DNA of 51,419 bases from Acidimicrobiales bacterium (lineage in GTDB: Bacteria; Actinomycetota; Acidimicrobiia; Acidimicrobiales; JAMCQF01). The notes beneath the pieces are model-generated. The model ran no database searches, had not been told where the DNA came from, and saw nothing but the letters and a program-made list of their open reading frames with translations. The position numbers and the translations under genes were made by a program. The stretch is from positions 1-51,419 of the forward strand of contig DAHXND010000180.1 in NCBI GenBank assembly GCA_027366675.1. Reading direction: 5' to 3'. Shown here piece by piece: positions 36,989 to 51,396 of the stretch (the stretch's first letter is position 1; the number at the start of each line of letters is the position of its first letter).

Positions 36989-37807
36989 TCAACTCGCGAA
37001 TGCCGTCTCGGCGTGGGCCTCTGCCGGGTCGTCGGATTCTGCCATCTCGTCCATCTGGATCGGTCCTTCGGTGCGACCGGCCAGGAACTGCTCTATGACG
37101 GGATCGGTGCTTGCCATCATCGCTTCCTTGGGGCCGAAGCCCACCAGGTGGGAGCGAAAGAGGATCCCGAGGAAGTCTGCTGTTCTGCTCACCGATTGGA
37201 TGTTGTGTGTGATGATGAAGAAGGTTGCTTTTGTGGCAGCCTGCGCTGTCACGACCAGCTCGTCCAGGTATGCAACGCGCACTGGATCGAGTCCGGAGTC
37301 CGGCTCGTCGAACAGGACTATCTCGGGCTCCATGACAAGCGCGCGCGCCAAGCCGGCGCGCTTGCGCATTCCTCCGGAGATCTCTCCCGGAAGCTTGTCC
37401 AGATGGTCGCCGAGCCCGACTATGGACGCATAGTGCATCACGATGTTCCTTATGGAACGCTCGTTGTTCTTCGTGTGCTCGCGCAGTGGAAATGCGATAT
37501 TGTCGTAGATGGGCATGGAGCCGAACAGGGCTCCATCCTGGAATAGCACGCCGAACTTGCGTCGCACCCGGTAGAGATCCTTCGTTCGCATGCCGACCAG
37601 TGGCTCTCCGTCTACCCATATCTGCCCGCTATCTGGCATGAGCAAGCCGAGGATGTGCTTCAGCAGGACGGACTTGCCGGTGCCGGAGGGCCCGAGAATA
37701 GCCGTGATGCGACCCTTCGGGATGTCGAAGGTGACATCGTCCAGGACAAGGTGGCTTCCGAACGCCTTGGTCAGCCCTTTGATGCTGATGATGGGCGTGG
37801 GTGGCAT
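36989..37807 (-). CDS. mceG: Mce-associated ABC transporter ATPase (MceG/Mkl, MlaF-like)
   Basis: Walker A GPSGTGKS, Q-loop FQDGALF, signature LPGEISGGMRKR and Walker B IVLFDEPDSGLD. ATG 37807 (GGAGA SD upstream) was chosen. The track ORF extends to 38005 but would run into the neighbouring gene. Confidence 0.85.
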   Translation of the reverse strand: MPPTPIISIKGLTKAFGSHLVLDDVTFDIPKGRITAILGPSGTGKSVLLKHILGLLMPDSGQIWVDGEPLVGMRTKDLYRVRRKFGVLFQDGALFGSMPIYDNIAFPLREHTKNNERSIRNIVMHYASIVGLGDHLDKLPGEISGGMRKRAGLARALVMEPEIVLFDEPDSGLDPVRVAYLDELVVTAQAATKATFFIITHNIQSVSRTADFLGILFRSHLVGFGPKEAMMASTDPVIEQFLAGRTEGPIQMDEMAESDDPAEAHAETAFAS

Positions 37808-37970
37808 TCTCCGGGCCTCGGGGCTCCCCTGGCTGGAGCCTGTCCGGCTCCCCTTGCCTGCTGCCGGTTCGGGGCGTACCCAGGAGATGCTCACGTACTG
37901 GTAACGTGCCTGCACAGCAGATCTTGCGGAGGCGCGCATGAGCCCCACTGATGGCATTGATTGGCGTTCC

Positions 37971-39602
37971 TCAGAGGCCGCTGCCGAGAACACCAGTGAG
38001 GTCACCGATCACGCCGGTGGCTCCCGACACCGTGCTACCGAGGGCGCTAGTGGCTCCAGATGCCGTGCGAGCGAGGGCGCTAGTGGCTGAAGATGCCGTG
38101 CTGCCGAGGGCGGACCCAGCCCCCGACACGGTGTTACCCAGGGCGCTAGTGGCTCCAGAAGCCGTGCGAGCGAGAGCGCTAGTGGCTCCCGATGCCGTGC
38201 TACCGAGAGCGCTAGTGGCTCCCGATGCTGCGCTACCGAGGGCGGACCCGGCCCCGGACAGCGTGCTGCCGAGAGCGGATCCGGCCCCAGACACCGTGTT
38301 ACCGAGAGCAGACCCGGCCCCAGACACCGTGTTACCAAGGGCGGATCCGGCTCCCGACACGGTGGAACCGAGAGCAGACCCAGCCCCGGACACCGTGCTA
38401 CCGAGAGCGGACCCAGCCCCGGACACCGTGCTACCGGGGGCGCTGGTGCTCGCGGCGCTGTCTCTTGCCGAGTTGGTAGCAGAACCTGATGTAGTGCCGG
38501 CGCCAGAGGCCTTCACGGGCAAATGCGCCTCCGAGCGGGGATGGGTCACCGATCCAGTCGGGGCGCTTCCGCCCGCGCGGGAGCTCACGGGACTCACGAG
38601 ATGGATGGCCCTCTTCCCGCTGGCCGGCGTGTTGCTGCCCTGAAGAATCACGGTAGGTACGATGACGCCAGCCGTGGCAACCGCAGCGAGAGCTCCGAGG
38701 AGCAGCAGGCGCGCGCTGTGCCCGGCAGCGGGGGCCCCTGACGTCAGAGCCTGAGACCCTCCAGGCATATGGCGGGCGAGCGATAGCCGCATGGCAGCGA
38801 GTTTCTCTCGTATCGCACTGGCGGCCCGGCTTGGTATCGCCCAGAGACTGGAAAGAGCGCCACCCAGCAGAGCGAAGGCCCCGAGGCCACCCTCGCAGAT
38901 CGCCTGGTATTCGCGTTTCAGCGCTTGCCGGGCACGCCACAGCAGGGTTTCCACCGTGCTCACCTCTACGCCCTCGCGCTCTGCTATCTCCTGGTAGCTG
39001 AGTGACGATCCTTCTCTGAGCTCGAGGACCATCTGGTGGCGCCGGTTCAGTCGCCTGAACGCCAACGATGCGATCCGGCGATCTTCTGCTTCCAGTACGG
39101 AAGCCTCACCGTCGTCTCGCTGGATTGCCGCTTCCACCTGGTGGCGACCAGCGAGATCGATATCTGCGACCGGGATGCTCCGGTGCCGCTTCCTGAGCTG
39201 GTCTGTGCATAGGTTGGCTGCGATCACGCTGAGCCACGGGTAGAAGCGCCTGTCTCCACCGAAGCGACCGAGCGCCTTCCAGGCCTTAATGAAGGATTCC
39301 TCGGTTACGTCCTCTGCCTCATGAGAGTCGCGCAGCCTCCTCATGCAGAAACGGAAAAGCCGCTCCCTGTAGCGGCGGTAAAGCTCCTCGAACGCTGAGT
39401 GGTCGCCCGCCTGGCACTGCTCCACCAGCAGGCGATCTCTGGCCAGATCCACGTCGTCCGAAAGTGACAGCCCTACGAGGGACCGATCCGCTCGACTGAC
39501 TCTCCAGCGAGAAGCTCGCTCCTGCCGCTGGCTCTCGTGCCCCCAGGCGTCTTCCTGCTCCCACTGATCCCCTTGCCCCCACTGGGCTTCTTCTATAGCC
39601 AT
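37971..39602 (-). CDS. ECF-type sigma-70 factor fused to hydrophobic segment(s) and a C-terminal 11-residue-repeat domain
   Basis: Region 2 is FEELYRRYRERLFRFCMRRLRDSHEAEDVTEESFIKAW. Region 4 is LNRRHQMVLELREGSSLSYQEIAEREGVEVSTVETLLWRARQALKRE. The same frame continues with hydrophobic stretches (aa 236-256 and 298-320). It then runs through 12 full plus 2 degenerate copies of GSTVSGAGSAL to the stop at 37971. Confidence 0.75.
   Translation of the reverse strand: MAIEEAQWGQGDQWEQEDAWGHESQRQERASRWRVSRADRSLVGLSLSDDVDLARDRLLVEQCQAGDHSAFEELYRRYRERLFRFCMRRLRDSHEAEDVTEESFIKAWKALGRFGGDRRFYPWLSVIAANLCTDQLRKRHRSIPVADIDLAGRHQVEAAIQRDDGEASVLEAEDRRIASLAFRRLNRRHQMVLELREGSSLSYQEIAEREGVEVSTVETLLWRARQALKREYQAICEGGLGAFALLGGALSSLWAIPSRAASAIREKLAAMRLSLARHMPGGSQALTSGAPAAGHSARLLLLGALAAVATAGVIVPTVILQGSNTPASGKRAIHLVSPVSSRAGGSAPTGSVTHPRSEAHLPVKASGAGTTSGSATNSARDSAASTSAPGSTVSGAGSALGSTVSGAGSALGSTVSGAGSALGNTVSGAGSALGNTVSGAGSALGSTLSGAGSALGSAASGATSALGSTASGATSALARTASGATSALGNTVSGAGSALGSTASSATSALARTASGATSALGSTVSGATGVIGDLTGVLGSGL
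37974..38435 (-). repeat. Tandem 33-nt repeat array, 14 units (12 full and 2 degenerate), in frame with the sigma gene
   Basis: Read directly. For example, 38403-38435 and 38370-38402 differ at 1 nt. Units 38403-38435 and 38337-38369 differ at 9 of 33 nt yet encode the identical peptide GSTVSGAGSAL on the minus strand. Confidence 0.95.
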
Positions 39603-39949: not shown

Positions 39950-41614
39950 ATGATGCTATATGAGGGGAAGATGTACAGATCCAGGGGTCTTGCCCTCGCA
40001 GCCGAGGCAGCCCTTGTCACAGCAGCCGTGCTGCTCGTGCTGCTCTCGAGCGTGGTATTCGTGGCATTCACCGATGGAGCGGCAGGAGCCGCACTGGCTC
40101 CCACCTGGAAGGGGAGCGCCTCGGCTCAGGCTCTCAAGGTATCCCTCGCGGGTACCAGCCTCGTAGGCGGAGATGCCACTTCGTCACTCTCGGGGACGCC
40201 GGCAGAAGGGGCGAGTGCCTCCTCGCAGATGCAGTCCCCAGATCTCCAGGCAACTGGCTCAGGCGAGCTCCTGCCGGTCCTGACAGCGCAGCAGAGCGCC
40301 AGGGTGACGGCGGCTGGCCGCCAAGACTCGCTACCGCAGGCCTGTGGCACCCCCTCGCTTCCCTCGCTTCCCGCTCCATTCACCTCCCTGCTTGCTCTTG
40401 GTGCAGGGTGCGGCTCAGCGACTGCCACAGCGACTGGACCCGACGAGGCTGCGAGCGCTACCGGGAGCGTGGCCAACCTGACCATCGGGCTCGGAGGTCT
40501 GTTGAAGGATGTGCCGGGGCTCAGCAGCGGCCTGTCGAGCCTAACATCGGCCCTCCAGTCTGCCCTTGGCTCCCTGCCGAGCTTGCCGGGCGGCGGGGTC
40601 TCGCCTACCAGTGCGTTGAGCAGCGTGCTGGGTGTCTTGAGCCATGCACCTGGCAGCCAGTCATCGTCGGTCTCTTCTAACAGCAGTGGCAGCGCCGGCG
40701 CGGATGGTGGGGGTGCCACCGTGGAAGGCAGTGGGTCATCCTCGGCATCCTCCAGCGGAGGCTCGGGCGGCTCTTCCGGCCTTCCATCGGTCCCCGGGCT
40801 CTCATCGCTGGCTGGGATCGTCCAGGGCATAGTCGGCTCACTCCCCGGCATGGCAAGCGGCGGCGTCTCCCCGGCAAGCGTGCTCGAAGGCGTCCTCGGG
40901 GTGCTCTCGGCGAGCCAGCTTCTCTCTGCGCAGATTGGCCAGTCCCAGGCAAGCATGGCAGCCACCGGGTCGGCATCCCTTCAGGCCTCGTCCACTGCAA
41001 ACGGGGGTAGCGTGGCGCTTTTCCCAGGGCTGGATGGGGGTTCAACTGCTCTCCTGACCGTGAACGTGGCTGCGGCGAGGAGCGTGGCGACCGAGCCGGC
41101 TGACGGCCAGCCTCCCACGGCGAGCGTGACGCCGGCCGTAGCCACCGTGACTGTTGCCCTACCGGGCACGGCGCCACAGACCCTGTCAGTCGGTCCTGGC
41201 AAGTCGGAGACGCTCTTCTCCGGGACGCCGCTCGAGAGCACGATCTCAGTCGCTGGAGGTAATACCTCGGTGCAGGGAGATACGGCTACGGCGAGCTCCC
41301 AGGGGGTTCAGATAGACCTGCTCCAAGGTCTGGATGGCGGCGTAAACCTCGATCTGGCCTCTACGAACGCGTCAGTCGACACCCCGGCGGTTCCGAGCAG
41401 CAGCCCGGTGAGCCCAGTCCCACCGGTGCAGGTGACGTCTTCGAGCACGCTTGCTCCGGTGACGGGCGTGACAAGCGTGCACACGGGCGAGCCGTGGGCT
41501 GGGGGGCTTCCTTACGCAGCGGGCCTTCTGGCTGTCGGGGCGGGTCTCATGAACCTACAGCGCATCCGGCGTGCTCTGAAACGCCTGCGGCTCCATCATG
41601 TCTCGGATAGATGA
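39950..41614 (+). CDS. Ser/Gly/Ala/Leu-rich secreted protein with a C-terminal cell-wall sorting-signal-like tail (candidate sortase substrate)
   Basis: N-terminal hydrophobic anchor or signal (ALVTAAVLLVLLSSVVFVAF). An internal roughly 40-aa duplication lies at 40511-40642 and 40790-40909. The C-terminus reads LAPVTGVTSVHTGEPWAGG, then the hydrophobic LPYAAGLLAVGAGLM, then the basic tail NLQRIRRALKRLRLHH. Confidence 0.6.
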   Translation: MMLYEGKMYRSRGLALAAEAALVTAAVLLVLLSSVVFVAFTDGAAGAALAPTWKGSASAQALKVSLAGTSLVGGDATSSLSGTPAEGASASSQMQSPDLQATGSGELLPVLTAQQSARVTAAGRQDSLPQACGTPSLPSLPAPFTSLLALGAGCGSATATATGPDEAASATGSVANLTIGLGGLLKDVPGLSSGLSSLTSALQSALGSLPSLPGGGVSPTSALSSVLGVLSHAPGSQSSSVSSNSSGSAGADGGGATVEGSGSSSASSSGGSGGSSGLPSVPGLSSLAGIVQGIVGSLPGMASGGVSPASVLEGVLGVLSASQLLSAQIGQSQASMAATGSASLQASSTANGGSVALFPGLDGGSTALLTVNVAAARSVATEPADGQPPTASVTPAVATVTVALPGTAPQTLSVGPGKSETLFSGTPLESTISVAGGNTSVQGDTATASSQGVQIDLLQGLDGGVNLDLASTNASVDTPAVPSSSPVSPVPPVQVTSSSTLAPVTGVTSVHTGEPWAGGLPYAAGLLAVGAGLMNLQRIRRALKRLRLHHVSDR

Positions 41615-42851
41615 CGCGGCCGGCCCTCGAAGTAGCGGTGCGCGCGCCCTGCATCCAAGCGTCGTAGCCGGTACACTTCTAATCTGGGTCGTTCTAGGAT
41701 TCGTTGGCTACGCTGCCGGCTGGACGTTCCGGAGCCATCGCGCAGACCAGGCCATAGTTCACTCTGTGCATTCGCAGCTTTCCACGATCAGCGTTGCCGG
41801 CTGCAGGCCAGTTCTGCCATCGAGCGGGCAAGTAGCTGGCATACTGTCCATTCCATCCCTCCATGTGAAGGCTCCCGTGGAGCAGGGGCTGGCAGGCGCG
41901 GTGCTGGATGTGGCAGTTGGCCACGCCTCCCAGTCGGTATGGCCAGGGCAAGGTGGCTCGGCCGTCTTCCTGGCCCACGACGTCAGCTATTTCAGCAGGA
42001 TCGACGAGCTCGCTCCCGGCTCTGTGATCACGTTCCAGGGTCTTCCTGAAGGTTGCAGGAAGCTGACGTTCGAGGTCACCGGCCACGACGTCGTTCCCGC
42101 TGGCTCTCCTATAGCTCAGCAGGCAGAGCCATCCATGGTGCTCGACACCTGCTGGCCCGTTAACGCGCTCTGGTACACACCGAACCGCTATCTGGTGCGC
42201 GCCGTGGAGGTAGGAGGCTCGCCTTCCAGGGTCGGTCCTCACTCCAGGGTCAATCCTCACTCCAGCGCCAGGAGCGCTGCTGCATCTAGAAGCGAGAAGG
42301 CGCACGAGAGCCCGCCGGGGAAGGCGGGAGTATCGAGAGCGCTACGGGAAGTCATGGTCAACCCCTCCTCCAGCTGGTCACTGCCGGCGTCATCGAACCT
42401 GGAAGTCCCTGCTCCGGCTGCCCTCGTCGCCCAGGGCCTGACGCTCCAGGACAACGAGGCACCCATGGGAGCCATGGCGCTGCTCGGGAGCCCTGCGTCG
42501 AGCTGGGCAGAGTCGCCAGCCCCGCTGGAGGTGGAGGCCAGCGCTCTCGAGGAGTACTTCGGTGCACTTCACGCGCTCTCTCAGGGCGAGGCTGCCTGGT
42601 GGGCAGATCTCGCTCCAGGAGTCACATTTCCCCAGATATTCGACGGGACTTCTGTGGTAGCCCATGACAGCGGTCTCGACGTCACGATCACGGCAGAGGG
42701 GACGCACCCGCTGGAAGTGATCCTCAGCTCCACCGTCGGGTTGTCAGGCGCATCAGTGCCAGGGGGATCCGGAGCTTACCGGCTAGAGGTGAAAGAGGCC
42801 GTGGAGGGCGGATCACTCTTCATAACTACATGGAGCGTGACGCCCGCATGA
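41598..42851 (+). CDS. Divergent sortase (class E/F-like transpeptidase fold) with N-terminal TM anchor and a roughly 200-aa C-terminal extension
   Basis: GILSIPSLHVKAPVEQG...VGHASQSVWPGQGGSAVFLAHDVSYFSRIDELAPGSVITF...MVLDTCWP...RYLVRAVEV reproduces the order of sortase His, Cys (TC.P) and Arg motifs. The usual AGHR is replaced by LAHD. There is a 17-nt overlap with the upstream gene. Confidence 0.6.
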   Translation: MSRIDDAAGPRSSGARALHPSVVAGTLLIWVVLGFVGYAAGWTFRSHRADQAIVHSVHSQLSTISVAGCRPVLPSSGQVAGILSIPSLHVKAPVEQGLAGAVLDVAVGHASQSVWPGQGGSAVFLAHDVSYFSRIDELAPGSVITFQGLPEGCRKLTFEVTGHDVVPAGSPIAQQAEPSMVLDTCWPVNALWYTPNRYLVRAVEVGGSPSRVGPHSRVNPHSSARSAAASRSEKAHESPPGKAGVSRALREVMVNPSSSWSLPASSNLEVPAPAALVAQGLTLQDNEAPMGAMALLGSPASSWAESPAPLEVEASALEEYFGALHALSQGEAAWWADLAPGVTFPQIFDGTSVVAHDSGLDVTITAEGTHPLEVILSSTVGLSGASVPGGSGAYRLEVKEAVEGGSLFITTWSVTPA

Positions 42852-43810
42852 TCCGAGCGCTTGCTATGGGGCTGAAGTTTTTTCCCCATGTGACCGCAAG
42901 GGTCCTGAAGCTCCGGCGTTTCACCGAGGTGGTGAAGACTCGGGGCCTCGCAGCGCGGCTTTCCAGTACGAGCTGGCGAACGCGTGCGATCATTTTCTCT
43001 GCGGGCAGCCTCGGCGCGCTGCTCACAGGTGGGATCCTGGGTGGAGCTCTGGGTGGGTTCCAGGTCTCCTTCCCATTCGCCGGAGCGTCCAGTCATGAAG
43101 GAAGGGTTCCCGCCCCTCGCGCAGGAAGGGTTCGAGCCCCAGGCAGAGGAGATGAGCTCAGGTCGCAGGATGTGGCCCTGATGTACCCTGCAGGTACATC
43201 GATCGCCGGGAGCTTTGGATCATCAGCCCCCGGTAGCAAGATCCCGGGAAGTGCTAGGGGCGCGACAGGCCCCGAGCTGGCCACGACCCCGGCCAGTGGT
43301 ACCGCCCATGGCGAGCCCGATTCGGCAACGGGAGCCCCACCCCGGAGCACGGATCCCACTCCGGGCTCGTCGAACGGGGCCGGCCCCGGCACTTCCTCGG
43401 GAGCGGATGGACCTTCCGGTGGGTCCACGACGCCGGTATCGGGGCCGGTATCGGGTACGCATGAAGGCTCGACCAGTAGCCCCCTTCCTGGCCATATCGA
43501 TCTCGGTAACGGCACTGTCCAGGTAGCTGCCAGCGGTAGCGGGGTTTCCGTCTCTGCCGGTAAGGGCGCGGCGGGCATCGGAGCAGGAAGCTCCGGGATC
43601 AGTGCTTCCCTGGGCAGCGGCGCAGTAGGCGTCAGCGCCGGCAGTTCCGGGGGCGGATCCTCGGCCACGAGCTCGTCTGGTAAGAGCGGATCCCCGACCG
43701 CGAGCTCGTCTGGCAAGAGCTCGCCAGGTGTCAGTGTGAGCGTTGCCGGGATCGATGTCGGCATCAGCTCTGGAGGCGTGACCAGCAATCTGAATCTCGG
43801 AGGTCTGTGA
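42830..43810 (+). CDS. Gly/Ser-rich membrane-anchored hypothetical protein
   Basis: The ORF overlaps the sortase gene end by 22 nt. It has one hydrophobic segment (AIIFSAGSLGALLTGGILGGALGGF), followed by a low-complexity P/S/G/T region and GSG(V/I)S(V/A)S-type repeats. The exact start is uncertain and no family was recognised. Confidence 0.4.
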   Translation: MERDARMIRALAMGLKFFPHVTARVLKLRRFTEVVKTRGLAARLSSTSWRTRAIIFSAGSLGALLTGGILGGALGGFQVSFPFAGASSHEGRVPAPRAGRVRAPGRGDELRSQDVALMYPAGTSIAGSFGSSAPGSKIPGSARGATGPELATTPASGTAHGEPDSATGAPPRSTDPTPGSSNGAGPGTSSGADGPSGGSTTPVSGPVSGTHEGSTSSPLPGHIDLGNGTVQVAASGSGVSVSAGKGAAGIGAGSSGISASLGSGAVGVSAGSSGGGSSATSSSGKSGSPTASSSGKSSPGVSVSVAGIDVGISSGGVTSNLNLGGL

Positions 43811-44040: not shown

Positions 44041-44210
44041 CATGTGCCGGGCTTTAGCGGCTAAATATCTCACTTCCTGTGGTCGGCTGGCCGCAAGGCA
44101 AGGGGTGTTGCCACGTTACCCAGACAGGGGAGCAGTCGAGGATAGGCCGCTCCGATCGGAAGGACTACAGCAGGGGGCCTTCAGTGGTGCAAGATACCGA
44201 CAGGGAAGGT

Positions 44211-45053
44211 ATGAGGGGAGCGCTCGGGCTGTCCTCGGGCGCGCCGAAGGCCCGTCCATCCGATCCTCTGGTGCCGCCGCTCGGAGCGAAGGTTCGGCGG
44301 CTGCTCGAGGATACAGGCAACATGTTCGCAGTTGCCCTGGAAGCGCTACGCAGTCTCTTCACGGAGGGAATGCCGCTCGGTGAGCTCATAGACCAGTGCT
44401 GGTTCCTCGCACGGGTAACGACCCTGCCACTCATACTGGTCTCGGTTCCCTTCGGTATGGTGATCGCGCTCGAGGTCGGATCCCTGCTGTCCCAGGTCGG
44501 GGCGCAGGCTCAGCTGGGAGGCGCGATGGTCCTCGCTGTAGTGCGCGAGCAGGCTCCCATTGCCACAGCCCTGCTCATAGCTGGTGCGGGCGGGTCCGCG
44601 ATGTGCGCCGATCTCGGTAGCAGGAGGATTCGCGACGAGATCTCGGCGATGGAGGTTATGGGTGTCAATCCGCTGAACAGGCTCGTTCTCCCGCGCCTCG
44701 CGGCAGCCATGATCGTGGCGTTCCTTCTCGATTCTGTCGTGAGCGTTGCCGGGATCGCAGGAGGGCTCTACTTCGGAACTGCGTCAGTTCACATAACCGT
44801 CAGCAGCTTCTTCGCCACATTCAGCGAGCTGAGCCAGATCTGGGATCTGCTCATGGCACTGGTGAAGGCGTTGATCTTCGGCCTTATCGCTGCGATGGTT
44901 GCCTGCTACAAGGGCCTCTACGCGAAGGGAGGCCCCAAGGGAGTCGGGGATGCAGTGAACCAGGCTGTCGTCATAACGTTCATCCTCGCGTTCGTGGTGA
45001 ACTCCGTGCTCACCATCGGATACTTCAACTTCATACCTCAGAAGGTGATCTGA
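44211..45053 (+). CDS. yrbE: Mce-system permease YrbE-A (MlaE family)
   Basis: LGELIDQCWFLARVTTLP, VVREQAPIATALLIAGAGGSAMCADLGSRRIRDEISAMEVMGVNP. ATG 44211 is preceded by GGGAAGG. The track ORF starts at 44079. Confidence 0.85.
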   Translation: MRGALGLSSGAPKARPSDPLVPPLGAKVRRLLEDTGNMFAVALEALRSLFTEGMPLGELIDQCWFLARVTTLPLILVSVPFGMVIALEVGSLLSQVGAQAQLGGAMVLAVVREQAPIATALLIAGAGGSAMCADLGSRRIRDEISAMEVMGVNPLNRLVLPRLAAAMIVAFLLDSVVSVAGIAGGLYFGTASVHITVSSFFATFSELSQIWDLLMALVKALIFGLIAAMVACYKGLYAKGGPKGVGDAVNQAVVITFILAFVVNSVLTIGYFNFIPQKVI

Positions 45054-45055
45054 GC

Positions 45056-45946
45056 ATGGCTATAGCCGTCGACAGGGGGGTAGCTGATCGCAGGGGGGTC
45101 TCCGGCGAGCGCCGCCATCACACTCCGGGCCAGCGTGCTCTGAGCCAAGCCCTTGGCGCGATCGAGCTCGTATACGACCATCTGGCCTTCTACTGGCAGG
45201 TTCTGCGGGCGATGCCAAAGGCACTGAAGTACCGGGCCGAGATCTTGCTCCTCATCTCGGACATAGCTGTTGGACCCAGCGCTCTCGTAGTAGGGGGCGG
45301 GATGCTCTTCGTCGTAGTCAGCATCTCGTTCTTCACGGGCACCGAGGTGGGTCTGGAGGGATTCACGGGCCTGCACGAGATCGGGGCCCAGGCATTCGTA
45401 GGGGTGATCGCGTCACTCGCCAACACGAGAGAGATCACGCCGCTGGTAGCCGGGATCGCCCTGGCTGCACAGGTGGGTGCTGGCTACACCGCGCAGATTG
45501 GCGCGATGAAGATCTCCGAGGAGATCGACGCTCTCGAGGTAATGGGCGTGAACAGCACGGTTTACCTGATCGGCACGCGCGTCTGGGCAGCTCTGGTAAC
45601 GATGATACCGCTATACTTGGCAGCGCTGTTCTCCAGCTTCTTGGCCAGCCAGTTCATCGTTACTACCTTCGAGCACCTGCCAGTTGGCACCTACCAGCAC
45701 TACTTCCAGCTCTTTCTCCCACCGATAGATATCTTCTACTCATTCCTGAAAGCCATGGCGTTCGCGGTTGTCGTGGTCATGGTGCACTGCTACTACGGCT
45801 ACAAGGTCAGGGGCGGCCCTGCAGATGTTGGTGTGGCAGCGGGAAGGGCCATAAGGCTCTCGATCATCTTGATAGTGCTTCTGAACCTCTTCCTCTCGCT
45901 CGTGATGTTCGGAGGGGACTCGAACACGGCGAGGTTGCTCGGGTGA
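45056..45946 (+). CDS. yrbE: Mce-system permease YrbE-B (MlaE family)
   Basis: TREITPLVAGIALAAQVGAGYTAQIGAMKISEEIDALEVMGVNS, paralogous to the preceding gene. Confidence 0.85.
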   Translation: MAIAVDRGVADRRGVSGERRHHTPGQRALSQALGAIELVYDHLAFYWQVLRAMPKALKYRAEILLLISDIAVGPSALVVGGGMLFVVVSISFFTGTEVGLEGFTGLHEIGAQAFVGVIASLANTREITPLVAGIALAAQVGAGYTAQIGAMKISEEIDALEVMGVNSTVYLIGTRVWAALVTMIPLYLAALFSSFLASQFIVTTFEHLPVGTYQHYFQLFLPPIDIFYSFLKAMAFAVVVVMVHCYYGYKVRGGPADVGVAAGRAIRLSIILIVLLNLFLSLVMFGGDSNTARLLG

Positions 45947-47358
45947 CGGGGAAGCTTGTGACGAGAGCCACAGCGGGTCCATCCCTCGAGCCTGGGGCTG
46001 TTCCTGAGTCGGCAGAGGTGCGACGTAGCGCTGCGGGCCACGAGCGGAGCCATCGCATCAGGAGGATAGCGACCGCGCTCGTGGCGGTCATGGCTCTCGT
46101 CGCTGGTGTCACGGTCGCTATCAGGGCCGCTGACGGTGATTACTCAGGAGCCTACCGGCTGGTAGGAATGTTCAGTCGAGCAGGCGAGGGGCTTGCGCCA
46201 GGTTCCCAGATCACTTACCGAGGGGTGCAGGTGGGGCGAGTGTCTGGTGCAACGCTGTCAGGTGGTCACGCGCGCCTGGTAATGCTGATCGACCCAGGAT
46301 TCCGAGTCCCACGCGATGCCGTGGCGACCATAGCACCTCAGAATATTTTCGGGGCCGACCAGGTAGACTTGAGCTTCCCGGCTGGAGATCATGGTCCCTG
46401 GCTTCGCCACGGTGGGACGGTTCTGGCTACTCGGGTGCAGGGACAGATCCTCGATCTGTTCGCTGCTGCTGACCCGCTGCTCGAGCGGATCGACACGGGC
46501 GCGCTCTCTAGCGTGGTATCGGAGCTTGCACAGGCGTCATCCGGGGACGGTCCTCAGATAGCGCGGTCGATCAGTGCGGGCGCGAAGCTGGCCAGCTTGC
46601 TCGATCAGACTGTCAGCAGCCAGATCTCCTTCCTCGACAGCTTCGACGCGCTCAGCGCCCAGGTGGCGGGTGTCGGTCCTACTCTGGACAACCTCTCGAA
46701 TCAGAGCAACGTATTTCTGCCATCGTTCAACGATGCGGCAGCATCCTACGCCAAGGTGCTGGCGAGCTTCACGCCTTTCGCCAACGATTTCGCCAGCCTG
46801 CTGGCCGACTACCGGCCGAACTTCGTGCAGCTCCTGAACGAGGGGGAGGACGTAGTAGCCGTGCTCGTCGCAAGCCGGCCCCAGATCGCCGGGGCCCTCG
46901 AGGGCCTGGACAACTACGTGTACAAGATCGAGCACGGTGTCAGCAGCGAGACCCTTCCGGATGGGTCGCATTTCTCCTACTTCAACACCTTCATCATGTT
47001 CTCTGATGTGAACAATCTCGTGTGTAGCTTGCTCGCTCCGAACCAGCCTGGCATGGCATTCCTCGAGCCGCTCCAGCAGGCGCTCACCGGTTCGGGGAGC
47101 CCGTTCAACTGCAGCACGGAGCTGGCCAGGTTCGATGCCGCTCAGGCTGGCAGCTCCTCGACCAGAGCCGCGCCAGCACCAGCGGCCAAGCCGGCCCCGA
47201 AGCCGAGCGGCACGAGCGTCACCTCCCTTCTGCCGCCAGCCGTATCGGGCGCGGCGAGGAAGCTTCTCCAGGCGGTGGACCAGATCCTGGGTGCCCCAAC
47301 CTCTGCGAAGCAGAGGTCGATAGGGTCTTATGTCCACATGCTTCTGGGAGGTCTGTGA
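45943..47358 (+). CDS. mce: Mce-family substrate-binding protein (MlaD domain), first of the series
   Basis: N-terminal TM (IATALVAVMALVAGVTVAI) followed by an MlaD/MCE domain (YRLVGMFSRAGEGLAPGSQITYRGVQVGRVSG...). The start overlaps the yrbE-B stop. Confidence 0.85.
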   Translation: MTGKLVTRATAGPSLEPGAVPESAEVRRSAAGHERSHRIRRIATALVAVMALVAGVTVAIRAADGDYSGAYRLVGMFSRAGEGLAPGSQITYRGVQVGRVSGATLSGGHARLVMLIDPGFRVPRDAVATIAPQNIFGADQVDLSFPAGDHGPWLRHGGTVLATRVQGQILDLFAAADPLLERIDTGALSSVVSELAQASSGDGPQIARSISAGAKLASLLDQTVSSQISFLDSFDALSAQVAGVGPTLDNLSNQSNVFLPSFNDAAASYAKVLASFTPFANDFASLLADYRPNFVQLLNEGEDVVAVLVASRPQIAGALEGLDNYVYKIEHGVSSETLPDGSHFSYFNTFIMFSDVNNLVCSLLAPNQPGMAFLEPLQQALTGSGSPFNCSTELARFDAAQAGSSSTRAAPAPAAKPAPKPSGTSVTSLLPPAVSGAARKLLQAVDQILGAPTSAKQRSIGSYVHMLLGGL

Positions 47359-48599
47359 TGGCCTGGTGGCGGCGCAGCTCCCCCGCGGACGGGCGTGCCC
47401 GGCCGAGGCAGGGCAGGCGCTTCTCCAGGAAGTCGCTCCTGGGCTTCACTGCCTTCGCGGTAGTGTGCCTGCTTCTCCTCGGTGAGCTGGCGATCAAGGT
47501 GGGGAACTTGCATCCCTTCGCCAGCACCAGGACCTACTACGCGGATATGGCCAACGTGACGGGCCTCACGAGCGGGGATGCCGTGAAGATAGCCGGCGTA
47601 TCTGTCGGCCAGGTCGCTGCCATCGGCGTTCAGCACGGGCATGCTGTCGTGACACTTGCGATCAACCGGGGGGTGAAGCTTCCAGAGGGGACAGAGGTGG
47701 GGATCCAGTGGAGGAACGTCATCGGGCAGATGGAGCTGTACCTCTACCCACCATCAGCGGGCCGGCCGATGCCTGCAGGCTCTACTATCCCACTGAGCGC
47801 CAACGCCGCCAGCCCTAACCTCGGGGCGCTTCTCAGCTCTTTCGGGTCTTTCCTCGGCGCGATAAATCCGGAAGAGGCCAATGCGTTTATCGTGAGCATC
47901 GCTAACGCCCTGGACGGCCAGAGCGCACAGGTGCGCGAGCTCATAGCCAACGGGGCAGTCGTATCGAAGACGCTCGGAGGGTTGAACAGCGAGATAGGGG
48001 CGGTGATCGGTGACTTCGACCAGGTGTTGTCGGCACTCGCGTCACGCAGCTCTGACCTCGGTTCCCTGCTGGATCACCTCGACAGCCTGACCTCCACCCT
48101 GCAACAGCACAACGATCTCCTGGACCAGGCGATAGGGAACCTGGGTAGCTTCGCGAACGATCTGGCGAGTCTCGAGAAGACGAACCACGCAGCGCTTTCC
48201 GGCCTCCTCACGAACCTGAACGCTGTCGTTTCGACCCTGAGCACCCACCAGAGCGAGCTTGCAGGAACCCTCAGCACCCTCGGTGAGGGTATAGCACCTT
48301 ACGAGCTGATCTCCTCGCAGGGTCAATGGTTCCAGATAAGGACTGTCTATACCTGCCTGGCGAACGAGACCACTTGCAACTACTACGAGCCGACGAATCC
48401 GCCCTCTGGTACTGGCTTGCTCGGCTCCCCGCCTACCTCGCTCCCGCTATCAGTGCCTGGCACTTCCGGGCGAGCGGCTACAGCGCAGCCATCCGGCGGG
48501 GCTCCCTTCTCTGGCACTGGCGGTATAGAGCAGGTACTGGAGCAAGTGGCTGGGGCTACCAGCGATGCTGGATCCGGAGCGGGAGCGGGAAAGTCATGA
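47355..48599 (+). CDS. mce: Mce-family protein, second
   Basis: TM segment followed by YYADMANVTGLTSGDAVKIAGVSVGQVAAI (MCE domain) and a helical region. ATGA overlap with the preceding gene. Confidence 0.85.
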   Translation: MMAWWRRSSPADGRARPRQGRRFSRKSLLGFTAFAVVCLLLLGELAIKVGNLHPFASTRTYYADMANVTGLTSGDAVKIAGVSVGQVAAIGVQHGHAVVTLAINRGVKLPEGTEVGIQWRNVIGQMELYLYPPSAGRPMPAGSTIPLSANAASPNLGALLSSFGSFLGAINPEEANAFIVSIANALDGQSAQVRELIANGAVVSKTLGGLNSEIGAVIGDFDQVLSALASRSSDLGSLLDHLDSLTSTLQQHNDLLDQAIGNLGSFANDLASLEKTNHAALSGLLTNLNAVVSTLSTHQSELAGTLSTLGEGIAPYELISSQGQWFQIRTVYTCLANETTCNYYEPTNPPSGTGLLGSPPTSLPLSVPGTSGRAATAQPSGGAPFSGTGGIEQVLEQVAGATSDAGSGAGAGKS

Positions 48600-49750
48600 A
48601 GGCTTTCACGGATAGGAAGCCGCTGGTGATCGGCGTAGTCGCGATCGTGGTGATCGTCGTGCTGGGATCACTCGTGCTCGTGCTGAAGCGCACGACATTC
48701 GAGTCCGCTTATCCCATCCGAGCGAGCTTCGCCTCGGCGGCAGGGGTGGGAGCAGGGGCAGATGTGCTGCTCGCAGGTGTCCCTGTGGGGCGCGTGGCGT
48801 CGGTGCAGCTTCATGGTGACCATGTGATCCTAACGCTGAACATAGACCACGGTGTCGTGCTCCCACACGATACGTCAGCCTCTATACAGACAGAGACCGT
48901 GCTCGGGGTCCTGGACGTGAGCCTGCACGCGATAGGCGGGTGGGCTCGCCCTCTCCCTGCCGGCGACCTCATCACTGACACGAGCATGCCCACAGAGCTG
49001 TACCAGCTCCAGGACGAGGCGGGTCGTTTCTTCGAGAGGGTGAACACGCAGGCCTTCAACGAGCTGGTAGATGAGCTGAATAAGATAACATCGGGTAACG
49101 AATCCCAGGTCAAAGCCATCATAGACGGCCTGGGCAGGCTCACTACGACGATCGACGAGAGATCGAGCGAGCTGGCACAGCTCATAGATGCCGCAGATAG
49201 CGTTAGTGGGCTCCTGGCCAGTCATGATGCCCAGATCCAGGGCGTGCTCGACAACCTGACCACAGTGGTGCAGGGGCTGGCAGACCGCAGTGGCGAGGTC
49301 GCGGCGTTCATCCAGGGCATAGACGCGGCGGGCGCCAATACCGCTTCGCTCGTGCGCCAGGATGCTCCGGAGCTCGACTCCCTCATCTCACACCTGGAGA
49401 GCGTCCTCGGTGTCGTAGCGAGCCATCAGCTCGACCTGGCCGAGGCGGTGTCGTATCTGGCTGCCGGGGTGAAGGGCTTCGCGTCGGTCGGCTACTCGGG
49501 TCCGGCTGATACGCCCAACACCTGGGCTAACATCTATACGAACCTCTTGGTGACGTCCGGTGTCTATGGAGTTCTCGGCGCCTGCGGGGCACTCTCCGAG
49601 GTGGAGAACGTCGCCCTGGGGCCGGATCCTCTCCCCTGTGGCAAGCGGGACGGCCCATCCCCGTCAGGCAGCTCTTCCCCCGCTCGCGGATCGGGGGGGT
49701 CGAAGGTGTCCTCCGTGATCTCCCCCCTGCTTCCCGGAGGTGGCTCGTGA
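48596..49750 (+). CDS. mce: Mce-family protein, third
   Basis: MKAFTDRKPLVIGVVAIVVIVVLGS followed by YPIRASFASAAGVGAGADVLLAGVPVGRVASV. ATG 48596 overlaps the preceding stop (ATGA). The track ORF start at 48326 is out of context. Confidence 0.85.
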   Translation: MKAFTDRKPLVIGVVAIVVIVVLGSLVLVLKRTTFESAYPIRASFASAAGVGAGADVLLAGVPVGRVASVQLHGDHVILTLNIDHGVVLPHDTSASIQTETVLGVLDVSLHAIGGWARPLPAGDLITDTSMPTELYQLQDEAGRFFERVNTQAFNELVDELNKITSGNESQVKAIIDGLGRLTTTIDERSSELAQLIDAADSVSGLLASHDAQIQGVLDNLTTVVQGLADRSGEVAAFIQGIDAAGANTASLVRQDAPELDSLISHLESVLGVVASHQLDLAEAVSYLAAGVKGFASVGYSGPADTPNTWANIYTNLLVTSGVYGVLGACGALSEVENVALGPDPLPCGKRDGPSPSGSSSPARGSGGSKVSSVISPLLPGGGS

Positions 49751-51396
49751 AGAGGCATGCCTTCATCGAGCGCATGGCTGGGAGGCGCCTGGCTGGGAGG
49801 CGGCTGTTTGTGGTGACAGCGGCTGTAGCGATGCTGCTCGGAGGAGCACTGGCTGCTGTGGTGGCGCTGACGAGCGGCCCCTCGACCTACCGGATAGAGG
49901 CTGAGTTCGCGAGCGCGCCGGGGCTCTTCGCAGGTGCTCCCGTGGAGATGCTTGGTGTCCAGATCGGCACAGTGACTGCAGTGAAGGCGGATCCCGGCCA
50001 CGTGCTGGTCACCATGGGCATCGACAGCGGGCGGCCTGTGCCAAGGGGTGCCGATGCAGCGCTGACTTCCGTAGAGCTGCTGAACGAGCCCGACGTAGTG
50101 CTCGTTCCGGGATATAGTGGTGGTCCGCGTATGAGGCCGTCCTCCGTGATTCCCGAGTCCCACACTGCGGTCCCGGTCTCCACGGAGCGCCTGCTAGAGG
50201 AGCTCCAGACGGTGCTCAGGCAGGTGAACCCGAAGTCGGTCGGTGGCCTGGTGCACAACCTTGCTCTCGACCTGGGTGGCCAGGGCAAGGAACTCCAACG
50301 TCTCATCTCCGGAGCGGCAGGGACGCTTCAGGTGCTTGCCCAGAAGGGCAACGATCTCGGCCGCCTCGACGGATCTCTCGCTTCGGTGATGAAGACATTG
50401 CGCGCAGACTCGACGAATCTGGTGCAGCTGATCACGGACTACGATACGGTGTCTTCCGTAATCGCCAGCAACGACAGCGCTCTCGGGCAGGGCCTGGCGA
50501 ATCTGGACGCTGCCTCGAAGCAGCTCGTCGACCTGCTGGCTCCGAACCTCGCGCCACTGGAAAAGGAGGTGCCCGTAGTCACCACGGTCGGCAGGACACT
50601 GGACCGGAACCTGAGCTCGCTGGACGAGCTCCTGGCATCGGCGGTGAAGCTCTTCAGCGGGGCGGAGCGGGCATACGTTCCCCAGTACAAGTGGCTGAAC
50701 CTGAACAATCAGCTGCCACCAGGTATGACCGGTGCTTACGTGGCCGGGCTGATAGGAGATCGCTTGGCCGGGATATGCCGTCGCCTGCTGGCTAACCACT
50801 CGGCCGGCCTGAGCGTAGCAGAGATCGCGACTCTGAAGACCTGCGGGAATCCTGACTCGGGATTCTTCGACCCGATACTCGGCCTCGTGCCGAAGATACT
50901 GGACTCCCTGCCCGGTGGGGGAAATGCCACCAGCCTGCCGAACCTATCGGGTGTGAGCGCATCACCAGCTACCTCTGCCAGCTCTGTCTTCGAGAAGGGT
51001 CTTGGCGAGATACCGGGCCTGAGCAACGCAGAGAAGGCAGCCCTCGAGCACGGTGCATCGTCCCCGCCATCCTCTGGATCTCGGGCTACGGCGCAGGGAG
51101 GACCATCCTCGGGCTCATCCCGGGCGTCCTCTGCGCCCAGCGGATCTACCCGGTCGGGCGGAAATGGAGCGTCGCCGTCGGGTGGGAAGCAGATCACGAT
51201 CAAGACCCCGCTGTTGAACCTGTCTCTCTCTGCCGACAGGGATCTTCCTTCCATAGCGCGCCTACCCGGCGCAGCCAGGCGGCCAGGCGGTGTGAGCGGC
51301 TTCTTCGACCAGGTCGCTCATGCTGTCTCGAGCGCGCTGTCGAGCGCTGCCCACGCGCTGTCCAGGGGCTTCGAAGTGATTGGCGGGTGGCTCTGA
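49747..51396 (+). CDS. mce: Mce-family protein, fourth, with a Ser/Gly-rich C-terminal tail
   Basis: TM segment followed by YRIEAEFASAPGLFAGAPVEMLGVQIGTVTAV (MCE domain). GTGA overlap with the preceding gene. Confidence 0.85.
   Translation: MKRHAFIERMAGRRLAGRRLFVVTAAVAMLLGGALAAVVALTSGPSTYRIEAEFASAPGLFAGAPVEMLGVQIGTVTAVKADPGHVLVTMGIDSGRPVPRGADAALTSVELLNEPDVVLVPGYSGGPRMRPSSVIPESHTAVPVSTERLLEELQTVLRQVNPKSVGGLVHNLALDLGGQGKELQRLISGAAGTLQVLAQKGNDLGRLDGSLASVMKTLRADSTNLVQLITDYDTVSSVIASNDSALGQGLANLDAASKQLVDLLAPNLAPLEKEVPVVTTVGRTLDRNLSSLDELLASAVKLFSGAERAYVPQYKWLNLNNQLPPGMTGAYVAGLIGDRLAGICRRLLANHSAGLSVAEIATLKTCGNPDSGFFDPILGLVPKILDSLPGGGNATSLPNLSGVSASPATSASSVFEKGLGEIPGLSNAEKAALEHGASSPPSSGSRATAQGGPSSGSSRASSAPSGSTRSGGNGASPSGGKQITIKTPLLNLSLSADRDLPSIARLPGAARRPGGVSGFFDQVAHAVSSALSSAAHALSRGFEVIGGWL

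Follow-up and report, generated by a model that had tools for sequence, protein, structure and literature searches.

Organization of the locus

We analysed a 51,419-nucleotide stretch of DNA (hereafter the window) from an Acidimicrobiales bacterium (contig DAHXND010000180.1, assembly GCA_027366675.1), in which one open reading frame (ORF) encodes a protein of 417 residues that, by its sequence and its predicted structure, is a member of the sortase superfamily. Taken together with structural models and with what is known of related enzymes, the sequences make it probable that this gene encodes an active membrane-anchored cysteine transpeptidase, representing a distinct two-domain family of Acidimicrobiia and dedicated to the protein encoded immediately upstream. 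The genes and features are listed in Table 1. The ATG of the sortase gene lies 17 nucleotides ahead of the stop of the upstream gene (41614), and the third gene starts (42830) 22 nucleotides ahead of the sortase stop; with these overlaps, the three genes are arranged like a translationally coupled operon. A gene of similar composition was also found at the position of the third gene in relatives.

Table 1. Coordinates of the sortase gene, its domains and the neighbouring genes in the window
Feature	Coordinates	Strand	Basis
Sortase gene, 417 residues	41598..42851	+	ORF listing; PF04203 match; 120 full-length relatives, 38–56% identity
N-terminal membrane anchor and stalk helix, residues 20–66	41655..41795	+	AlphaFold2 helix 20–66; hydrophobic core at about residues 22–44
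Sortase catalytic β-barrel, residues 75–210	41820..42227	+	PF04203, 2LN7 alignment, Foldseek
Pro/Ser/Ala-rich linker, residues 211–262	42228..42383	+	Predicted local distance difference test (pLDDT) <50; gapped, unconserved alignment columns
18-nucleotide tandem duplication in the linker	42225..42265	+	Tandem Repeats Finder
C-terminal NTF2-like domain, residues 268–417	42399..42848	+	AlphaFold2 model, Foldseek
Putative cognate substrate gene, 554 residues	39950..41614	+	ORF listing; Ser/Gly/Ala/Thr-rich, N-terminal signal/transmembrane segment, predicted secreted
Putative non-LPXTG sorting signal on the upstream gene	41471..41611	+	Consensus of 63 unique signals
Third operon gene, 326 residues	42830..43810	+	Single transmembrane segment, Gly/Ser/Pro-rich ectodomain, C-terminal end LGGL
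Membrane-tethered extracytoplasmic function (ECF) sigma factor gene, divergent	37971..39602	-	Sigma70_r2, r4 and ECF domains
Two yrbE (MlaE) genes, then mce (MlaD/Mce4_CUP1) genes	44079..51396	+	Pfam matches

Fold and catalytic residues of the sortase

The initial annotation, made from the sequence alone, had described the product as a sortase-fold enzyme, and both profile and structural searches bore this out. The family PF04203 matched residues 83–204, covering nearly the whole model, with 56 bits against a cut-off of 26.6 (59 bits for the same sortase in a genome-wide scan). The motifs could be read in the order originally claimed: VGH(A) at residues 107–109, PGQGG at 116–120, LAHD with His127, LDTCWP with Cys185 and finally Arg197. 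The codons of His127, Cys185 and Arg197 lie at 41976–41978, 42150–42152 and 42186–42188, respectively. In the alignment with the class D sortase of Bacillus anthracis (2LN7), which was the best solved structure by sequence (phmmer, 1.7e-5), His127 fell on SGH, Cys185 on TTC and Arg197 on DRY.

The AlphaFold2 model, built from an alignment of 120 sequences, had a mean pLDDT of 82 and consisted of four parts, namely a helix (residues 20–66), a beta-barrel (79–209), a disordered region (211–262) and a compact domain (268–417). The catalytic domain therein ends near residue 210 and not at about residue 205, as had been stated before. When the sortase model was searched with Foldseek, a probability of 1.0 and target template modelling (TM) scores of up to 0.76–0.78 were obtained for sortases of classes D, E, C, A and F, among them 2LN7 (target TM-score 0.76) and 4D70 (root-mean-square deviation 2.5 Å). 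His127 comes right after the predicted strand 121–126, Cys185 is near the end of strand 179–186 and Arg197 near the start of strand 196–209; we take these to be the canonical sortase positions. The alignment and the shared fold indicate that the three residues are probably juxtaposed, and likeness to other sortases points to a type II topology. In the N-terminal anchor, G25, L28, W30 and W42 are conserved across the family.

The LAHD and LDTCWP motifs had been regarded as alterations of the enzyme. They do differ from the GHR type, but they are not peculiar to one protein: in an alignment of 120 members, A126-H127-D128-V129, Y131-F132, D183-T184-C185, P187 and R197 were invariant, and a second block of invariant or near-invariant positions extended over residues 272–345. 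The invariance of LAHDVSYF and DTC-P in 120 relatives argues that they form a family signature under selection and are not a product of decay.

Two further cysteines were noticed besides the catalytic Cys185: Cys153 (42054–42056) is invariant and Cys69 (41802–41804) is at least 90% conserved, and one of the two is located just ahead of the barrel and the other inside it. They may form an extracytoplasmic disulfide. Genes for DsbA and PAP2 were seen close by in the loci of two relatives (L001 and L002).

A conserved signal at the end of the upstream protein

The 554-residue upstream protein had no match in Pfam or NCBIfam. Its end is tripartite and consists of TSVHTGEPWAGG, a hydrophobic stretch and RIRRALKRLR; the residues that concern us here are T508-S-V-H-T-G-E-P-W-A-G-G-L-P521, after which come the hydrophobic stretch and the basic tail (RIRRALKRLRLHH). 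A homologous or analogous gene bearing such a signal was found directly upstream of the sortase gene in 76 loci. At first pass the signal was seen in 60 of the 74 loci with enough upstream sequence, and the apparent exceptions carry it too, but their cytoplasmic tails are longer or, in the case of Aciditerrimonas, E is changed to A. The 76 loci gave 63 unique signals with the consensus T-[STA]-[VI]-H-T-G-E-[FPWY]-W-[ASG]-G-x-L-P; T(-3), H, T, G, W(+5) and G(+7) never vary, and 62 of the signals have E. No other part of the substrate is nearly as well conserved as this signal; little else is kept beyond a pair of cysteines. In one clade the protein with the same HTGEPW signal is shorter and has an IPT/TIG domain (PF01833, 57 bits) in place of the Ser/Gly-rich ectodomain. 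Since the same signal occurs on a different ectodomain, it appears to be a portable module. Substrate genes of the IPT/TIG type are located at L023, L024, L026, L029, L031 and L033.

The pairing of the sortase with an HTGExW signal is near-universal. The source genome, which is 85% complete, has one sortase and one HTGExW protein, and a six-frame scan of this genome for LPxTG and LAxTG tails gave no credible substrate (no specific LPxTA pattern was run). In two complete chromosomes, with 3–4 sortases each, there was exactly one genuine HTGExW signal, and it adjoined the sortase of this family; these genomes also have sortases that score higher on PF04203 than the family does (113–116 bits).

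Aciditerrimonas ferrireducens has at least three further, divergent paralogues with both domains, whose motifs are AAHDVTWF/VTCYP, AGHDVTWF/VTCWP and EAHDVGYF/ISCWP; the paralogue loci are L095 3547–4339 (+), L095 5351–6680 (-) and L096 4210–5341 (-). The EAHDVGYF/ISCWP paralogue is preceded by a protein that ends with ASTGEPWSG, a transmembrane helix and RRRG, so the T-G-E-x-W-x-G core follows the enzyme family even where the His varies. A protein near the paralogues (L095 8984–9779, -) ends with TTPTTGVPVLGLW, a transmembrane helix and RRRR, and this tail may be a further variant of the signal.

In another clade (L027, L028, L037, L040, L045, L052, L062 and L078) a conserved Pro-rich cytoplasmic extension follows the basic tail (...GGPPPGPASGTSSVPPPVSGPARRQS). 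It would be lost with the anchor after cleavage, and the fact that it is conserved suggests that it acts before sorting or in the course of it.

We also compared the enzymes with the residue at position +4 of their signals. Residue 188 (42159–42161), directly after DTCWP, was always Pro where the signal has F, Y or L at +4 (41 enzymes), and mostly Thr (31/35) where the signal has P or W there. Residue 188 lies beside the catalytic Cys; the correlation is linked to clades and does not amount to proof.

The linker and the C-terminal domain

The initial annotation had noted an extension of about 200 residues that belonged to no recognized family. The extension is present, but it is really composed of a disordered linker of about 55 residues (211–262) and a globular domain of about 150 residues (268–417). 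The linker, with a pLDDT below 50, is free to vary in length and sequence among relatives. The 18-nucleotide duplication reported in this region is real (Tandem Repeats Finder: 42225–42265, period 18, 2.3 copies, 91% matches, score 68) and encodes SRVGPH/SRVNPH; it was absent from all aligned relatives. Its location in a hypervariable disordered linker and its absence from relatives indicate that it arose probably by neutral slippage, and it is most simply explained as a recent event without special function.

The globular domain was modelled with a pLDDT of 94–98 in the full-length protein, in the order strand, two helices and five strands, and its invariant or near-invariant residues are L276, G280, L283, N286, G291, S306, P307, P309, F321, G322, W334 and W335. 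Modelled alone, it gave a predicted TM-score of 0.75. The top 50 Foldseek matches were all NTF2-like cones, mostly with a probability of 0.9–1.0, and included the CaMKII hub, SgcJ, SnoaL-type, ketosteroid-isomerase-like, bile-acid dehydratase and VirB8-like proteins and designed NTF2 proteins. As the initial annotation had said, no known sequence family could be assigned: a Pfam scan of the domain from 22 members had no match (SnoaL, DUF4440 and similar families included), and a profile search of the PDB with this domain found nothing significant. We infer from the models that the domain has a remote NTF2-like fold and is not a member of a known family. When the search was limited to the C-terminal region, 65 proteins were found and all 65 had PF04203 as well, so it seems that the domain does not occur apart from the two-domain sortase.

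The domain is predicted to share the alpha+beta cone topology of NTF2-like and SnoaL-like proteins, including those of the Mam/OmamA and VirB8-like types, but it has no sequence relation to members in Pfam or the PDB or to a Mam-type protein; unlike them, it has an additional N-terminal strand and the invariant segment APxxLxAxGLxLxxNExPMG, and it was found only in fusion with a sortase. This segment (residues 272–291) was modelled confidently in the full-length protein and not in the isolated domain, and it might pack against the catalytic domain. Homology to Mam/Omam proteins was considered and rejected: hhalign gave a probability of 0.07% for the domain against the Mam-type protein of Aciditerrimonas (L093, 4993–5985), which is encoded downstream of the mce operon and itself had no Pfam match. 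What the C-terminal domain and Mam-type proteins would share is only a common fold.

Distribution of the family and its relation to known sortase classes

A search of about 5.8 billion proteins found hundreds of full-length relatives of the sortase with approximately 94% coverage and 38–56% identity, and those from named organisms belonged to Acidimicrobiales or Actinomycetota. An exhaustive HMMER scan gave 147 cluster representatives with E <1e-30, and most of these had two matching stretches, one in the sortase and one in the C-terminal part. At least 168 species-level genomes have a relative of the sortase. Among the 80 hits listed, all but two came from metagenome-assembled genomes labelled Acidimicrobiales, Acidimicrobiaceae, Actinomycetes or Actinomycetota; the exceptions were one with an Acidobacteriota label and one cultured strain, A. 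ferrireducens JCM 15389. The contig with the Acidobacteriota label (L009, JAGWNV010000021.1) is probably mis-binned or mislabelled, and the other 79 of the listed hits have actinobacterial labels. In a set of 301 evenly drawn Acidimicrobiia genomes the C-terminal domain was found in three, so the family is restricted to certain lineages and is not class-wide. By its sequence distribution, the two-domain sortase family is confined to Acidimicrobiia.

It had been proposed that the enzyme resembles sortases of classes E and F. This assignment was not supported: class D came first and class C followed in the comparisons with NCBIfam and with PDB profiles taken together. The class D models of NCBIfam gave 58.4 bits against a cut-off of 140 (NF058671) and 57.4 bits against 165 (NF033746). 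The third-best match was the class GN model with 41 bits (cut-off 158), and the class E (NF033747) and class C models gave 35 and 24 bits, respectively, each against a cut-off of 160; no class F model was among the NCBIfam matches at E up to 1. All of 24 diverse family members were under the class cut-offs, with a best E-value of 2.7e-22. When the profile of the catalytic domain was compared with the PDB, 2LN7 was the first match (2.4e-14) and class C enzymes were next, and the values for class E structures (2.8e-5 to 2.1e-4) and for the class F structure 5UUS (3.5e-5) were much weaker. Sequence comparison thus places the family nearest to classes D and C, as a member of no curated class among D, E, C and GN, and several relatives carry the NCBI name 'class D sortase'.

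With class D (B. anthracis SrtD/'SrtC', 2LN7; Clostridium perfringens SrtD, 4D70) the family has in common the best match in sequence and fold, the H-C-R order, the VGH...PG..G segment ahead of the catalytic His, an N-terminal membrane anchor and a small number of dedicated substrates. It differs from this class in its scores, in the additional NTF2-like domain, in having AHDVSYF for GHR and DTCWP for T(L)xTC, and in its signal, which is VHTGExWxG as compared with LPNTA or LPxTA(TN) of class D. The pairing of a sortase with a single adjacent target is known from the class GN system of NCBIfam/TIGRFAM. Like our family, the 'marine' sortase of class GN (TIGR03784) is a dedicated enzyme beside one target with a non-LPXTG signal, but it belongs to Proteobacteria, has a signal and a target of its own, lacks the NTF2-like domain and, by its model, is distant from the family. 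Class E (SrtE1, 5CUW, LAXTG) comes from the same phylum, has a non-proline residue at P4 (A in LAXTG, V in the signal of the family) and keeps the Thr-Gly pair; in contrast to the one adjacent substrate here, class E enzymes have many substrates and a housekeeping role, and the family scores far below the class E cut-off.

Recent abstracts count six sortase classes, A–F. No relevant publication came up in literature searches for sortases in Acidimicrobiia or Acidimicrobiales, for a sortase joined with an NTF2-like domain, for the motif strings or for a new sortase class. To our knowledge, a fused NTF2-like domain has not been described in any of classes A–F, and the sorting motifs known so far depart little from LPXTG. 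Dedicated sortase–substrate pairs with a non-LPXTG signal are known already, and the family would add a further form of such a pair.

Genomic neighbourhood

Other genes around the cassette were examined in the related loci. The sigma factor gene was found at a distance of up to 7 kb from the sortase gene in 23 of 58 loci, and mce genes were located downstream of the cassette in 15 of 66; both linkages are kept only in the closer clades. Obligatory linkage of the cassette to mce or sigma genes was therefore rejected, and neither of them defines the sortase cassette. In the loci that also have the sigma gene, tblastn found a counterpart of the ORF at 36989–38005 (-), which is encoded on the opposite strand about 3.6–4.9 kb upstream of the sortase.

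We also noticed that the third gene (43796–43807) and the first Mce protein (47344–47355) both end with LGGL, an ending found in 4 of the 3,245 long ORFs of the source genome. The outside tail of the sigma factor ends with the similar LGSGL (37974–37988, minus strand), and similar ends were seen in homologues of the third gene and in one Mce protein of relatives. It may be that envelope proteins at the sortase locus have this C-terminal motif in common.

Discussion

The conservation of the signal and of the enzyme that adjoins it is consistent with the following mechanism. After export, the C-terminal helix and the basic tail would keep the substrate in the membrane. Its extended signal T-x-V-H-T-G-E-x-W-x-G would be recognized by the sortase and cut probably between Thr and Gly, a site that we place by analogy with the cut in LPXTG. 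A thioacyl intermediate would be formed on Cys185 with the assistance of His127 and Arg197, and from there the protein would probably pass to an acceptor with an amine, a peptidoglycan precursor being the most likely one. The NTF2-like domain on its flexible linker of about 55 residues would most likely serve as an accessory exosite; its task may be to read the unusually well conserved residues after the cut (E-x-W-x-G-x-L-P) or else to hold the cell wall or the acceptor. Because most of the invariant positions of the signal (E+3, W+5, G+7 and P+10) come after the presumed cut, a recognition surface on the side of the leaving group would be needed, and the tethered cone seems to be the obvious candidate for it. 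The role in substrate docking or wall binding that had been suggested for the extension is possible.

Several observations weigh against this interpretation. The source genome is only 85% complete. The NTF2-like assignment depends on Foldseek matches with E-values of 3.6e-3 or weaker and TM-scores of 0.45–0.58. The columns that covary most strongly with position +4 of the signal are spread over the transmembrane, sortase and C-terminal parts and follow three clades, so that a reading of the signal by the C-terminal domain finds no support in the covariation. Finally, the low confidence of residues 271–291 in the isolated domain, which would agree with packing against the catalytic domain, may be explained equally by the shallower alignment used there (22 sequences instead of 120).

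Among other explanations, we considered a polymerase of the class C type, which would join copies of the upstream protein, or the upstream protein and the product of the third gene, into a covalent pilus fibre. Class C structures are among the best matches by fold and by profile, the other two genes of the sortase operon encode Ser/Gly-rich envelope proteins, and a dedicated sortase adjoining its substrate is typical of the pilus loci of class C enzymes. However, Pfam and NCBIfam showed no domain or motif of the pilin type in the substrate, the third gene has no sorting signal, and the source genome has no second, housekeeping sortase by which the fibre could be anchored. Neither was a lid motif of the class C type (DP[FWY]) seen ahead of the barrel in the alignment, and the replacement of the ectodomain by an IPT/TIG domain in one clade counts against a pilus as well. 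We therefore regard this explanation as improbable.

We give about the same low chance to an enzyme of processing or release, which would cleave the signal and pass the protein to water or to an acceptor other than peptidoglycan (for example a lipid, a glycan or a second protein). The signal is very unlike LPXTG, its leaving-group side is conserved, long conserved cytoplasmic tails follow the anchor in some clades, and the NTF2-like cone could, given the ligand-binding habit of this fold, hold a small hydrophobic or glycan acceptor. On the other hand, wall-sorted proteins have just such a Thr-Gly core and tripartite architecture, and, according to the abstract of a review, the characterized sortases of classes A–F are all transpeptidases acting on wall precursors or pilins (PMC8225981).

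Somewhat less probable still is a role linked to Mce transport, in which the NTF2-like domain would be a module of the Mam/Omam kind that docks the sortase and its substrate onto the Mce lipid transporter. The mycobacterial Mce-associated protein OmamA is described in a review as having one transmembrane helix plus an NTF2-like fold at the C-terminal end, and is thought to contact Mce complexes (PMC13492129); as is predicted for the domain described here, its cone is extracytoplasmic on a single-pass membrane protein. In the source locus the cassette is directly upstream of the yrbE/mce genes, and the third gene and the first Mce protein account for two of the four ORFs ending with LGGL. Yet the NTF2-like domain is universal in the family, while mce genes accompany only a minority of the loci, and the NTF2-like fold is very common. 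With the hhalign result against the Mam-type protein and the limited linkage of mce and sigma genes, docking to Mce is kept as an explanation of low probability. The weakest explanation, an ordinary housekeeping sortase of class D or E with an irrelevant drifting tail, has in its favour the NCBI name of several relatives and the best matches to class D among hidden Markov models and PDB structures, but it is contradicted by the results, as 24/24 tested members were far under the class D cut-offs, the genome had no credible LPxTG or LAxTG substrate, and the tail is a strongly conserved and confidently folded domain.

A dedicated transpeptidase for the upstream protein therefore seems to us the most probable function of the gene. 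A bolder proposal, which we put forward tentatively and hold to be rather doubtful, is that the family forms a seventh class of sortases, confined to Acidimicrobiia, in which specificity would be set largely by the leaving-group side of the signal (T-G-E-x-W-x-G-x-L-P, cut after T) as read by the NTF2-like exosite, with one enzyme, one substrate and a long orthogonal tag.

In this family, a catalytic domain that has diverged is combined with a long signal that is highly conserved and has most of its invariant residues past the presumed cleavage site. The cultured carrier A. ferrireducens JCM 15389 makes it directly testable. If the enzyme is active, it could supply a pair of ligation enzyme and tag for protein engineering without cross-reaction with SrtA and LPXTG. 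An active enzyme would also widen the known rules of sortase recognition, and would give a function to abundant 'hypothetical' Ser/Gly-rich surface proteins in a poorly studied class of actinobacteria that is common in soil and peat.

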